NCBI GenBank assembly: GCA_036785375.1
Contig: JAWMAR010000145.1
Location: forward strand, 4,836,001-4,900,000
Reading direction: 5' to 3'
DNA: 64,000 bases
Source of the DNA: Leucoraja ocellata
Taxonomy: Eukaryota
This document shows positions 7,305 through 13,242 of this stretch, piece by piece. The translations under genes and the position numbers were made by a program. Position 1 is the first letter of the stretch. Each line of letters begins with the position of its first letter. Under the pieces are notes generated by a model, which was given only the letters and a program-made list of their open reading frames with translations, was not told the DNA's origin and made no database searches.

Positions 7305-7746
7305 AAGCACAGGATCATGTCAACTGTGTTTCTCTTGCCACAGATGCTTCCTGATATGCTGAGTGCTTCCAACACTTTCTGTTTACATCTATTTATTTCC
7401 AACATTAGTAGATTTTTGATTTTTACCTTGCACCAGAGAGCAGAGAATTCCACCTGGAAGTTTAGGGCTCCAGTGATCTTGGACTACTTTTCTAAATTAT
7501 AATTAGCAGAAGCTTATAAATAATTAAACCGAAAAAAAATATTTTACATAAAAAATTGACCAGAGGCCCAGGACCGGACAGAGGCCCAGGACCGTTGGTG
7601 CAGTGGAGGAGGGTCAGGGCTTTTACCAAAATCCGTAACGTTCCACACTCCATAGTGAGGGTTCTGGTGGAAGCCGCTGATTGGTGGAAGCAGACTAGAG
7701 GAAGCAGCTGATTGGGTGCAACATCAGGTTAGCATTTGTGCTTTCT

Positions 7747-7935
7747 GGTTAAAGGGGCAGTGCTTTAGTTAAGGTACAGTGGGTTAAAGGTGCAGTGGGT
7801 TAAAGGTACAGTGGGTTAAAGGGGCAGTGCTTTAGTTAAGGTACAGTGGGTTAAAGGTGCAGTGCTTTAGTAAAAGGTGCAGTGGGCTAAAGGTACAGTG
7901 CTTTTTGTTTATATAATAAAGGTGCAGTTTAAAGG
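7747..7935 (+). repeat. Degenerate 16-21 bp tandem repeat (ggttaaaggtRcagtg) in the CR1 5' UTR
   Basis: About 9 copies of taa(a)gg(t/g)(a/g)cagtg visible; also an 18-bp duplication at 7561-7594. Confidence 0.8.
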
Positions 7936-8033
7936 TCACGAGGGAGCAGCTGTTGTGAGTCAGATTCCTGCTGATTTCTCCCAGCAGTTTCTATTGTATT
8001 ATACTGGTATCAGATCCAGGGTAAGGCGGGAGA

Positions 8034-8966
8034 ATGACAGTCAGAGCAGTATACTGTTCTGGATGTCAGATGTGGGAGGTCATGGTGTCGGATGGCCCTC
8101 CAGACATCCACATCTGCACCAGGTGCAGCGAGATGGGGCTCCTAAGGGACCGTATTAGGATCCTGGAGCAGCAGCTCGATGACCTCGCTCTGATCAGGGA
8201 GAGTGAGGAGGTCATAGAGGGGAGTTATAGAGAGGTGGTCACTCCAAAACCACGGGAGAGAGACATGTGGGTCACGTTAAGGAAGGGCAAGGGGCAGAGG
8301 CAGGAACGAGTGAGTACTCCAATGTCGGTACACCTTGCAAATAAGTACTCCTGTTTGAGTACGGATGGGGGTGACAGCCTACCCGGGGGTAGTGACAGCG
8401 GACGGGCCTCCAGCACAGAGACCGGCCCTGTTGCTCCAAAAGCTAGGGAAAAAAAGAGTGCAATAGTAATTGGGGACTCTATTGTTAGGGGGTCGGATAG
8501 GCGATTCTGTGGATGCAGTCGGGAGACCAGGATGGTGGTCTGCCTCCCTGGTGCCAAGGTCTCGGACGTGTCTCAACGCATCCAAGATATCCTTAAATCA
8601 GAGGGAGAGGAGCCTGAGGTCGTGGTACATATAGGTACCAATGACATAGGGAAAAAAAGGGAAGAGGTCCTGAAGGGAGGATTTAGGGAGTTGGGAGGAG
8701 AGTTAAGAAAAAGGACCAAAAAGGTAACAATCTCAGGATTACTGCCTGTGCCACGCGACAGAGAGAGTAGGAATGGAGCGAGGTGGAGGATAAATGCGTG
8801 GCTGAAAGACTGGTGCAGAGGGCAGGGATTCAAGTTCCTGGATCATTGGGACTTCTTTTGGGGAAGGTGGGACCTGTACAGAAAGGATGGGTTGCACTTG
8901 AACCCGAGGGGGACCAATATCCTAGCGGGGAAATTTGCAAAGGCAGCTGGGGAGACTTTAAACTAG
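8034..8966 (+). CDS. CR1 ORF1p: zinc finger/leucine zipper + SGNH (GDSL-like) esterase
   Basis: CSGC...CTRC, heptad repeat LRDRIRILEQQLDDL, GDSIVR, HIGTND and DGLHLN motifs; open for 310 aa. Confidence 0.95.
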   Translation: MTVRAVYCSGCQMWEVMVSDGPPDIHICTRCSEMGLLRDRIRILEQQLDDLALIRESEEVIEGSYREVVTPKPRERDMWVTLRKGKGQRQERVSTPMSVHLANKYSCLSTDGGDSLPGGSDSGRASSTETGPVAPKAREKKSAIVIGDSIVRGSDRRFCGCSRETRMVVCLPGAKVSDVSQRIQDILKSEGEEPEVVVHIGTNDIGKKREEVLKGGFRELGGELRKRTKKVTISGLLPVPRDRESRNGARWRINAWLKDWCRGQGFKFLDHWDFFWGRWDLYRKDGLHLNPRGTNILAGKFAKAAGETLN

Positions 8967-11911
8967 AATGGTTGGGGCGAGGGACTCAAATAGCGAAAGG
9001 TAGTAGACAGAATGGGAGGCAGGAAGCAGAAATGGGAAGCACTCGGACACAAGAGGAGAAAGGAAAAAAAGGAAATAAACAGAGAATAAGAGACGGGGGT
9101 TTTCTTAAATGTGCATATTTTAATGCTAGGAGCATTGTAAGAAAGGTGGATGAGCTTAGAGTCTGGATAGACACCTGGAAGTATGATGTTGTGGCGATCA
9201 GTGAAACGTGGTTGCAGGAGGGCTGTGATTGGAAACTAAATATTCCAGGATTTCGTTGCTTCAGGTGTGATAGAATTGGAGGGGCAAGAGGTGGAGGTGT
9301 TGCATTGCTAGTCAGGGAAGATATTACAGCAGTGCTTTGGCAGGATAGATTGGAGGGCTCATCTAGGGAGGCTATTTGGGTGGAATTGAGAAGTGGGAAA
9401 GGTGTAGCAACACTTATAGGGGTGTATTATAGACCGCCAAACGGGGAACGAGAATTGGAAGAGCAAATATGTAAGGAGATAGCAGAGATTAGTAGTAAGC
9501 ACAAGGTAGTGATTGTGGGAGATTTCAACTTTCCACACATAGACTGGGAAACACATTCTGTAAATGGGCTGGATGGGTTGGAGTTTGTAAAATGTGTGCA
9601 GGATAGTTTTTTGCAGCAATACATAGAGGTACCTACTAGAGGAGGGGCAGTGCTGGACCTCCTGTTAGGAAATGAGACTGGACAGGTGGCGGAGGTATGC
9701 GTTGGGGAGCACTTCGGGTCCAGTGATCACAATACCATTAGTTTCAATATAACTATGGAGAGGGTCAGAACTGGACCTAGGGTTGAGATTTTTGACTGGA
9801 GAAAGGCTAACTTTGATGCGATGCGAGATGATTTAAAAGGAATGAACTGGAACATTTTGTTTTATGGGAAAGATGTAGAAGAGAAATGGAGGACATTTAA
9901 AGGGGAAATTTTAAGAGTACAGAATCTTTATGTTCCTGTTCGGTTGAAAGGAAACAGTAAAAATTGGAAAGAGCCCTGGTTTTCAAGGGAAATTGGACAT
10001 CTTGTTCGGAAAAAGAGGGAGATCTACAATAATTATAGGCAGCATGAAGTAAACGAGGTGCTTGAGGAGTATAAGGAATGTAAAAAGAATCTTAAGAAAT
10101 AAATTAGAAAAGCTAAAAGAAGATATGAGGTTGCTTTGGCAAGTAAGGTGAAAGTCAATCCAAAGGGTTTCTATAGCTATATTAATAGCAAAAGGATAAG
10201 GAGGGATAAAATTGGTCCATTGGAGAGACAGAGTGGACAGCTATCTGCAGAGCCAAAAGAGATGGGGGAGATATTGAACTTTTTTTTTTCTTCGGTATTC
10301 ACCATGGAGAAGGATATTGAATTATGTGAGGTAAGGGAAACTAGTAGAGTAGCTATGGATACTATGAGTTTCAAAGTAAATGAAGTACTGACACTTTTGA
10401 AAAATATAAAAGTGGATAAGTCTCCAGGTCCTGACAGGATATTCCCTAGGACATTGAGGGAAGTTAGTGTAGAAATAGCCGGGGCTATGACAGAAATATT
10501 TCAAATGTCATTAGAAACGGGAATAGTCCCCGAGGATTGGCGTACTGCGCATGTTGTTCCATTGTTTAAAAAGGGTTCTAAGAGTAAACCTAGCAATTAT
10601 AGACCTGTTAGTTTGACTTCAGTGGTGGGCAAATTAATGGAAAAGATACTTAGAGACAATATATATAAGCATCTAGATAAACAGGGTCTGATTAGGAACA
10701 GTCAACATGGATTTGTGCCTGGAAGGTCATGTTTGACTAATCTTCTTGAATTTTTTGAAGAGGTTACTAGGGAAATTGACGAGGGTAAAGCAGTGGATGT
10801 TGTCTATATGGACTTTAGTAAGGCCTTTGACAAGGTTCCTCATGGAAGGTTGGTTAAGAAGGTTCAACTGTTGGGTATAAATGCAGGAATAGCAAGATGG
10901 ATTCAACAGTGGCTGCATGGGAGAAGCCAGAGGGTAATGGTGGATGGCTGTTTATCGGGTTGGAGGCAGGTGACTAGTGGGGTGCCTCAGGGATCTGTGT
11001 TGGGTCCTTTGTTGTTTGTCATGTACATCAATGATTTGGATGAAGGTGTGGTAAATTGGATTAGTAAGTATGCAGATGATACCAAGATAGGGGGTGTTGT
11101 GGATAATGAAGAGGATTTCCAAAGTCTACAGAGTGATTTAGGCCATTTGGAAAAATGGGCTGAAAGATGGCAGATGGAGTTTAATGCTGATAAATGTGAG
11201 GTGCTACACCTTGGCAGGACAAATCAAAATAGGACGTACATGGTAAATGGTAGGGAATTGAAGAATACAGTTGAACAGAGGGATCTGGGTATAACCGTGC
11301 ATAGTTCCTTGAAGGTGGAATCTCATATAGATAGGGTGGTAAAGAAAGCTTTTGGTATGCTAGCCTTTATAAATCAGAGCATTGAGTATAGAAGCTGGGA
11401 TGTAATGTTAAAATTGTACAAGGCATTGGTGAGACCAAATCTGGAGTATGGTGTACAATTTTGGTCGCCAAATTATAGGAAGGATGTCAACAAAATAGAG
11501 AGAGTACAGAGGAGATTTACTAGAATGTTGCCTGGGTTTCAACAACTAAGTTACAGAGATAGGTTGAATAAGTTAGGTCTTTATTCTCTGGAGCGCAGAA
11601 GGTTAAGGGGGGACCTGATAGAGGTCTTTAAAATGATGAGAGGGATAGACAGAGTTGATGTGGACAAGCTTTTCCCTTTGAGAATAGGGAAGATTCAAAC
11701 AAGAGGACATGACTTCAGAATTAAGGGACAGAAGTTTAGGGGTAATATGAGGGGGAACTTCTTTACGCAGAGTGTGGTAGCGGTGTGGAATGAGCTCCCA
11801 GTGGAAGTGGTGGAGGCAGGTTCATTGGTATCATTTAAAAATAAATTGGATAGGCATATGGATGAGAAGGGAATGGAGGGTTATGGTATGAGTGCAGGCA
11901 GGTGGGACTAA
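8963..11911 (+). pseudogene. CR1 ORF2p: APE endonuclease + reverse transcriptase, one in-frame TAA at 10100-10102
   Basis: NARS, ISETW, YRPP, GDFN and SDH endonuclease motifs; QHGF, DFSKAFD, GVPQGSVLGP and YADD RT motifs; ORFs 8783-10102 and 10136-11911 are the same frame. Confidence 0.95.
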
Positions 11912-13242
11912 GGGGAAAAAAAAAATTTGTTCGGCACAGACTTGTAGGGCCGAGATGGCCCGTTTCCGTGCTGTAATTGTTATATGGTTATATGTTATAT
12001 GGTTATAAGGAGAGAGATATATTTGAAGTTCTCGTTTAAATGTTTGAAGCGTTGCTACAGGATTTGATGCCATGTACTTGACACGTAGCCGCCCGCAATG
12101 ACGCTCTGGTGATTAGTTGTGAGGTTGCCTGGATGAGAGGAATAGGGGTGAAAATTGTCACCAAAAGACTGACGTCTCTTATTGCTCATTTTGTTTTCCC
12201 CTACCCATCCCATCCACTAACAAAAAAAACCTTTGAACCAACCTCCAGCATAGCATTTGGCATAAAGCGGAATTTGTTTAGTAAACTATTAGCTACCTCA
12301 TTTGTTGTCTACCTTCAATGATTGAACACGTAGGTTAGTCCCCTTTCACTGAAGTCATATTTCTACTACATTGGTGCATTGTTTATTTTTATCTTTTAGT
12401 AACACTCTAAAGCAGCTCTACGGTCACCAGGTCAAAAACATTGTGTGTTTCAGGTCAACTATAAAGTGAAAATTAAAGATGGTGCTTATGAAGTTTATTG
12501 GACTGTTTCAATATTCCTTGCTTAAATCTCTCTAACAATGGCTCAAACTCCAATCATGGAGTTCCATTTCAATTTGTAATCAACAACTCAAAAAGCTCAG
12601 TTGAATAGAAGATAATCTTCCTACTGCCTTTATTCTTGCTCATAACTGCTTAATTAGATTTCTTGTGGAATCCATGGGTTAATAAACAATAGTGGAATGT
12701 ATTGGGATAAATGGTATCTCTGATGAAATAAAGTGCAGGTAGTAAGAATGGTCATGTTGTGCTTGAAGAGTTTGAGATACTGTTTGAAGTACTATACATT
12801 GACACTGTTTGTTTATTAGCAAAGTTGCTGCTGTGCTTTTAAAGTGATGGATGGGCTGCAGTTCCAGCCTCAGTGGTTGTCATCAGTCATGCATGAAGTG
12901 ACATTTCCTTATGTGTTCAGTTCCTAACATAAGCAAATAGCAGCTAAGTGTTTAACGCTGGAGCTGGGCTCTGTGCCATTTTGATCAAGCTGCCCTATTT
13001 TGGATTTTGCTCTGTGTGTGTGTTCATTGCTATTTATTAAATTTAAGCAAATATCGTTCCAGATTCTTATTCTATTTCAATTCACTTCTCGCTCGTTTGG
13101 TCCTGCACGCTTGCCTAGTCAAATTAGCATAATTTTATACAGTATCAATGTGACTTGGCCACTTTAATTGCTTTTGTTTATACAAATAAAATTATTGTGT
13201 TAAAACTATATCGATATTATCAACCAACTTTAGAGCTACCTT

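Follow-up and report, generated by a model that had tools for sequence, protein, structure and literature searches.

How ORF2, the open reading frame (ORF) that comes second in a long interspersed nuclear element (LINE), comes to be translated is a standing question, for which the worked cases, L1 and SART1, point to reinitiation. The question is raised by a CR1 element in a stretch of 64,000 nucleotides (nt) of Leucoraja ocellata DNA (GenBank assembly GCA_036785375.1, contig JAWMAR010000145.1, positions 4,836,001 to 4,900,000 of the forward strand), which is referred to here as the window and numbered from its first letter. In this element, an esterase-coding ORF1 and an ORF2 coding for an apurinic endonuclease (APE) as well as a reverse transcriptase (RT) meet at a slippery heptamer. 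We found that the heptamer and its phase are kept among diverged CR1 families, and that the junction of esterase-type CR1 is probably a programmed -1 frameshift signal making a Gag-Pol-like ORF1-ORF2 fusion.

The ORF1-ORF2 junction

The features of the element, all on the plus strand, are as follows.

7578..12001, plus strand: full-length young CR1 LINE copy with esterase ORF1, APE-RT ORF2, 3' hairpin and short tandem tail
8037..8966, plus strand: ORF1, 309 amino acids (aa), with Cys motif, SGNH/GDSL esterase and C-terminus T-L-N-stop
8957..8963, plus strand: slippery heptamer U_UUA_AAC in -1 phase, read in the sequence and conserved across lineages
8964..8966, plus strand: ORF1 stop abutting the heptamer, TAG here and TGA or TAA in other families
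8970..8983, plus strand: G-rich tract, candidate stimulator, beginning 6 nt past the heptamer
8963..9103, plus strand: linker in the -1 frame from the shift site to the endonuclease, free of stops in the intact copies of every young family (50-79 codons)
9032..9034, plus strand: in-frame ATG in the ORF2 frame, peculiar to the window subfamily and not conserved
8963..11911, plus strand: ORF2 (APE endonuclease and RT) in the -1 frame, interrupted by an in-frame stop at 10100-10102

ORF1 ends in ACT TTA AAC TAG, with TTTAAAC (8957-8963) in the zero-frame X_XXY_YYZ phase and the stop directly after it. The -1 frame is open from 8771 to 10099 and reads GDFKLEWLGR through the site. The spacer TAGAAT (8964-8969) is followed by the G-rich GGTTGGGGCGAGGG (8970-8983), and the ATG at 9032 lies in the ORF2 frame in a good Kozak context (G at -3 and at +4). 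These features had been described in an earlier note made from the sequence alone, and all of them were present as described. The same note expected a fusion of about 1290 aa. The coordinates indeed predict 309+982 = 1,291 aa, with a 13-residue transframe peptide (AAGETLNLEWLGR, the window translation across the shift), but the TAA at 10100-10102 lies in frame in ORF2 of the window copy, which is otherwise intact and very young, and this insertion alone could yield a fusion of only about 688 aa. Since most sister copies are free of this stop, the question concerns the family and not the single insertion. In-phase heptamers occurred 2-5 times per ORF2, so one alone is not rare; what is beyond chance is the conservation of the heptamer at the junction, not its mere occurrence.

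Conservation of the heptamer among CR1 lineages

Copies of esterase-type CR1 were gathered blind to the junction, either by protein search or through the DGLHLN motif that lies upstream of it. Of the 215 loci, 212 could be anchored; the ORF1 stop stood at the expected distance in 193, and the rest were frame-broken. At least seven esterase-CR1 lineages of this genome read T_TTA_AAC and then a stop, with ORF2 in the -1 frame. The residue before Leu-Asn and the stop of each lineage are listed below.

Lineage A (the window's): Thr-Leu-Asn-TAG; 77 of 78 clustered copies exact
Lineage B: Ala or Val before Leu-Asn; TGA stop
Lineage C: Gly, TAA; 5 of 7 exact
Lineage D: Ser, TAA; 33 of 33 exact
Lineage E: Ala, TAA
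Lineage F: Asp, TAA
Lineage G: Gly, TAG
Lineage H: His, TAG

Thus the codon ahead of the Leu of the heptamer varies (ACT, GCT, GTT, GGT, TCT, GAT and CAT, for T, A, V, G, S, D and H), and so does the stop (TAG, TGA, TAA). Genome-wide, TTTAAAY was found in 8,281 of 8,498 matches to a Leu/Phe-Asn-TRR-end pattern in which neither the Leu codon nor the base before it is fixed, a count which is descriptive because the copies are kin and not independent.

The young intact families A, B and D, which share 60-64% identity in the esterase, served as a silent-site control over 809 aligned codon columns. Only 13 of 105 four-fold sites agreed among the three families. Conserved Leu columns had the same codon in 4 of 38 cases and TTA throughout in 0 of 38, and conserved Asn columns were all AAC in 1 of 12; in columns with three different residues, the third base was shared in 14 of 184 and was T throughout in 2 of 184. 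Silent sites of the young families were near saturation. Given a C-terminus of the form x-L-N, the chance from codon usage that B and D would both repeat the heptamer is 0.017 x 0.017, or about 3e-4.

At the protein level, an L-N C-terminus was present in 39 of 64 ORF1 homologues (from skate, rays, sharks, two turtles and unnamed sources). Nine different residues preceded L-N, and K, E, Q, M and W, none of which has a codon ending in T, were not among them (0/39; by residue type, p ~0.03), whereas these five occupied the position one earlier in 27/39. Two stingray gene models (P0031 and P0065) run on into F-K-L, which is how the site reads in the -1 frame. The earlier note had proposed to check whether the heptamer is kept at synonymous positions and ORF2 always in the -1 frame; both were kept across diverged CR1 families. 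Judged from these comparisons, TTTAAAC-stop is a real, selected signal.

Some records and copies were unusual in other respects. Four proteins (P0023, P0030, P0065 and P0066) carried CR1 ORF1 in records named Pseudomonas aeruginosa hydrolase, ray ribosomal protein S24, hydroxyacid oxidase 2 and VSIG10L2, likely because of contamination or mis-joined gene models. In L040, L049, L059 and L075 the junction was fused to distant parts of ORF2, some of them from another CR1 family; these joints are internal deletions or template switches near the junction.

Reading frames and start codons past the heptamer

In intact copies, the -1 linker was open from the heptamer to the endonuclease for 50, 52, 61, 62, 74 or 79 codons, and frames 0 and +1 closed within 0-34 codons past the heptamer. 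The -1 frame was closed 1-5 codons upstream of the heptamer in D, E and several C, F and G copies, so ORF2 cannot start earlier. The ATG at 9032, from which ORF2 might be reinitiated according to the earlier note, was missing in 13 of 15 open copies of a sister subfamily with 1,879 motif matches in the genome, and no Met preceded the endonuclease there. Among the long-open copies of this subfamily, 9 of 12 had no Met before codon 140, and the first Met was mostly located far inside the endonuclease or past it. RNA reads of a related organism (mixed copies) showed the T of this ATG as A in 47/60, 25/52 and 2,697/4,210 reads. The downstream ATG is kept neither in the sister subfamily nor in the reads of the related organism. 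Across families, lineage G excepted, no start codon was conserved in or around the ORF1 stop, and no near-cognate start beside the stop was shared (CTA in most, CTG only in B). Termination-reinitiation of the SART1/L1 type involves an upstream ribosome-retention motif of the UGGGA type; TGGGA, a candidate for it, stood no more than 130 nt away in 6 of 9 representatives, where the sites encode Trp-Asp/Glu-type codon pairs.

The RNA reads of the related organism contained no splice joints and no heptamer indel at thresholds of 3% and 5%, and splicing or an RNA-level indel as a means of correcting the frame was rejected for these reads. Positions 8947-8966 were invariant in the reads, a stretch that also takes in the ten bases ahead of the heptamer, and this is no specific evidence. 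None of the indexed runs listed as holding the element was recorded as RNA. At an A-rich site of the window (9052-9070), single-cell RNA reads of the related organism piled up on the sense strand and ended in poly-A, likely as a result of internal priming.

Candidate stimulators

The earlier note saw in the G-rich tract a possible quadruplex or a weak stem. A G tract positioned about 6 nt past the heptamer is indeed shared: G was found at +6 in 7 of 9 representatives, and the G-run score peaked for the whole element at +7/+10 in B and D, while in A it was in the top 1%. The UUGGG/CUCAA stem of the window copy was no better than shuffles (z +0.91, with 164 of 200 shuffles folding equally well), and no quadruplex was predicted for this copy. 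In nine representatives no downstream hairpin or pseudoknot-like fold was better than shuffles (z -1.9 to +1.8), and quadruplex-aware folding predicted none in young families A, B and D. The G runs could also come from a G-rich strand bias and a relaxed linker. When pairing of the G tract with the 3' untranslated region (UTR) was ranked, the result was 1/1,555 in D, 4/1,490 in B (third cluster) and an unremarkable 36/1,460 in A; such long-range pairing is a weak lead, the 3' UTR being pyrimidine-rich.

The typical spacing between a heptamer and its 3' element is 5-8 nt, and synthetic quadruplexes placed 6-8 nt behind UUUAAAC caused up to about 7% shifting (PMC3919603). According to the available part of a 2016 recoding review, no natural quadruplex-stimulated frameshift was known (PMC5009743). 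The junction G tract is a candidate for such a natural stimulator.

Two further features of these regions were observed. The 3' UTR of family D (L272/L273; about 2,980-3,330 nt past the ORF1 stop) is long (about 345 nt); ahead of the usual CR1 end it carries tracts rich in U and in C as well as a GA-rich block, and the junction G tract finds its best pairing partner in the C tract there. In the old copies L044, L080, L246 and L259, the junction G tract has grown into a long poly-G just past the ORF1 stop.

Distant relatives

A metagenome scan identified 78 loci, presumably animal-host DNA, with 22-41% identity in the esterase, of which 27 were scorable (esterase match and endonuclease start). 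One of them, L121, has G_GGA_AAC UAG at the junction, an ORF1 ending in G-N, an ORF2 open for 930 codons in the -1 frame and a G-rich tract, and clusters with the window families in a 14-row endonuclease tree (88/90 support, long branch). A different layout was found in 17 of the 27 relatives, in which ORF2 lies in frame behind a single stop. This stop was always TGA, followed by C in 15 loci and forming TGACTA in nine; UGACUA is a type II readthrough motif (PMC13517186). The remaining scorable relatives included one without a stop between the domains and eight that were broken or unassignable. L122, L167 and L196, which are more distant, likewise carry ORF2 in frame behind TGA-C, and in two of these three no Met precedes the endonuclease. 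By their sequences, both layouts, -1 shift and UGA-C readthrough, would give an ORF1-ORF2 fusion. Within the in-frame clade, L145 has an Arg codon where its relatives have TGA, resulting in one open esterase-endonuclease frame; this recalls how alphaviruses alternate between opal and Arg, although the change may be neutral.

Other searches were less productive. A genome search with two distant ORF1 proteins yielded no new family among the 35 loci fetched, and viral contigs contained no relative. Prokaryote genome contigs gave 13 loci with 24-30% identity, and both of those examined (L314 and L316) had no ORF2 behind the esterase. A search for longer proteins gave three matches, all gene models.

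The CR1 element and its window

Assignment of the element to the esterase-type CR1 LINEs rests on its domain layout, its 3' end and the turtle ORF1 homologues. Pfam identified a GDSL/SGNH esterase in ORF1 (PF13472, E 5e-14) and APE endonuclease and RT in ORF2. ORF1 spans 8025-8966 from stop to stop with its ATG at 8037, and contains a stretch that by eye is coiled-coil-like; its nearest named protein, with 94% identity, is from a skate. The element was 97% identical to a sister copy, L275, across 4,427 nt, with the 5' end at 7578 common to both, and a 381-nt junction was identical in 19 of 40 scored matches, window copy included (976 candidates). The 5' UTR (window 7680-7940) holds a variable tandem array of TTAAAGGTGCAGTGGG-like units, present in different numbers from one sister copy to another. 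Elsewhere in the window (18527-56591), there are more than 20 further RT-like LINE fragments with 28-89% identity, none spanning an ORF1 junction.

Proposed mechanism and alternatives

The frameshift interpretation of the earlier note is supported by the kept heptamer and phase and by the unconserved ATG. On mammalian ribosomes, U_UUA_AAC and G_GGA_AAC belong to the heptamers most prone to shifting (PMC5009743). Under this interpretation, ribosomes finishing ORF1 would hold tRNA-Leu and tRNA-Asn on UUA AAC, and most of them would terminate at the next codon and release the ORF1 protein (ORF1p). A minority would slip in tandem to UUU AAA and read on (…ETLN-LEWLGR…), giving a minor 1,291-aa esterase-APE-RT fusion, and the slip rate would fix a high ratio of ORF1p to polymerase, as in Gag/Gag-Pol. 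The least certain step is the pause signal, which may be the stop next to the heptamer, the G tract spaced 6 nt from it (through a quadruplex or long-range pairing), or both.

Several observations weigh against the frameshift interpretation. An in-frame Met is found 22-35 codons past the heptamer in the youngest families A-P (39/40), B (all B-type) and D (32/32), the old lineage G (L260 and L278) has an in-frame ATG 2 nt past the stop, L121 has a Met just before the endonuclease, and 13 of the 17 in-frame relatives have one in their linkers (4/17 being without). The heptamer is altered in some single old copies (L038, L044, L062, L077/78, L086, L244/245 and L267). The silent-site test covers only three intact families of this genome; the G_GGA_AAC swap is seen in the single locus L121; 16 of the 17 in-frame loci look like members of a single clade (seven were tested in the tree), L124 standing apart; and the folding searches were negative.

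The alternative that survives best is production of a separate ORF2 protein (ORF2p) by termination-reinitiation at an AUG or non-AUG codon, with TTTAAAC-stop-G-tract as a cis-element for termination or ribosome retention. The linker Met of all three youngest families and of L121, the lineage G ATG, the good Kozak context at 9032 and the failure to find a structured stimulator all fit this model, and there is precedent, which also counts against frameshifting, in human L1 and SART1, whose ORF2 is ascribed to termination-reinitiation (PMC5972666, PMC2881922). However, the Mets of the youngest families sit at unrelated, non-homologous places and are lacking both in C copies and in most of the sister subfamily's open copies, no near-cognate start beside the stop is shared, and the frame stays open upstream of the Met. 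Neither the UUU to GGG swap in L121 nor the in-frame UGA-C relatives would be predicted. We therefore consider reinitiation unlikely.

A still less likely possibility is that both routes operate, frameshifting giving a minor fusion and ORF2p from a linker ATG carrying out retrotransposition in those families that have one. Besides the linker Met of the youngest families, this could draw on the many CR1-group lineages that persist without ORF1, which imply that ORF2p can work alone (PMC13343379). However, amplification brought the sister subfamily to about 1,900 motif matches with no such Met in the majority of its open copies, and by our own estimate a Met is expected by chance in about 2 of 3 linkers of 50-80 codons. 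Finally, it is very improbable, and already strongly disfavoured, that the site is a by-product of an L-N end needed by the esterase with inherited codons, or of RNA-level frame correction by splicing or polymerase slippage: L-N is near-invariant at the protein end and all families have a common ancestor, but silent sites elsewhere are near saturation, the RNA reads of the related organism have neither joints nor heptamer indels, L121 ends in G-N and fish homologues end otherwise.

Relation to known systems

Coronavirus 1a/1b and retroviral gag-pol have the same heptamers, the same phase and the same structural-to-polymerase layout as CR1, in which the candidate 3' element stands at 6-nt spacing. 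In contrast to these viruses, CR1 is non-viral, its stop abuts the heptamer, no pseudoknot or hairpin was found and Pfam detected no protease domain. The nearest precedents among LINEs are TRE5-A and TRE3-A of Dictyostelium, which are said to require a -1 frameshift for ORF2 (PMC5911963) and which, like CR1, are APE-RT elements lacking long terminal repeats. They differ in being amoebal members of the L1 clade with another ORF1, whereas CR1 is a vertebrate element with an esterase ORF1 and a heptamer conserved against silent drift. Human L1 and silkworm SART1 share with CR1 a bicistronic LINE RNA, and their ORF2 output depends on ORF1 translation (PMC2881922, PMC5972666); however, they have a spacer or a UAAUG overlap and a free ORF2p, whereas the CR1 frames overlap at the slippery site and have no conserved start. 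UGA-CUA readthrough in alphaviruses and the gag-pol readthrough of murine leukemia virus resemble the distant esterase-LINE relatives (UGA-C, mostly UGA CUA), not the window element.

The element matches canonical vertebrate CR1 (subgroup 7, ORF1 type IVB; PMC4120745) in its Cys-motif esterase ORF1, APE-RT ORF2 and short-repeat tail. The available passages of PMC4120745 and PMC2734521 describe the CR1 domains and not the route of ORF2 translation. No report of programmed frameshifting in CR1 was found in the searchable literature, a scope that leaves out older subscription papers, including the early CR1 consensus. In the available text of the 2016 recoding review (PMC5009743), CR1 is not named and LINE ORF2 is ascribed to unusual initiation; 'frameshift' is absent from the main text available for three LINE-translation reviews (PMC3894237, PMC2881922 and PMC5972666), and the corresponding part of a 2026 survey of vertebrate CR1 groups (PMC13343379) contains none of 'frameshift', 'slippery', 'overlap' or 'translat'. 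The mechanism is of a known kind; neither its occurrence in the main vertebrate CR1 clade nor the exchange for readthrough in relatives appears to have been described in the searchable literature.

Implications

A broader proposal, which we hold tentatively and with somewhat less than even confidence, is that esterase-ORF1 LINEs, including the dominant vertebrate CR1 clade, make a Gag-Pol-like fusion by recoding and alternate between a -1 shift (U_UUA_AAC, G_GGA_AAC) and UGA-C readthrough as retroviruses do, the CR1 stimulator being a natural G tract acting through a quadruplex or 3' UTR pairing. CR1-group elements make up 22-34% of shark and ray genomes (PMC13343379), and the esterase ORF1 has Gag-like membrane properties (PMC3905857). 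A conserved shift site would mean that the start of CR1 ORF2 has been mis-annotated, that the polymerase bears an esterase with these membrane properties, and that the same ratio-setting device arose by convergence in LINEs and retroviruses. If this is true, recoding would tether RT to a membrane-binding ORF1 assembly.

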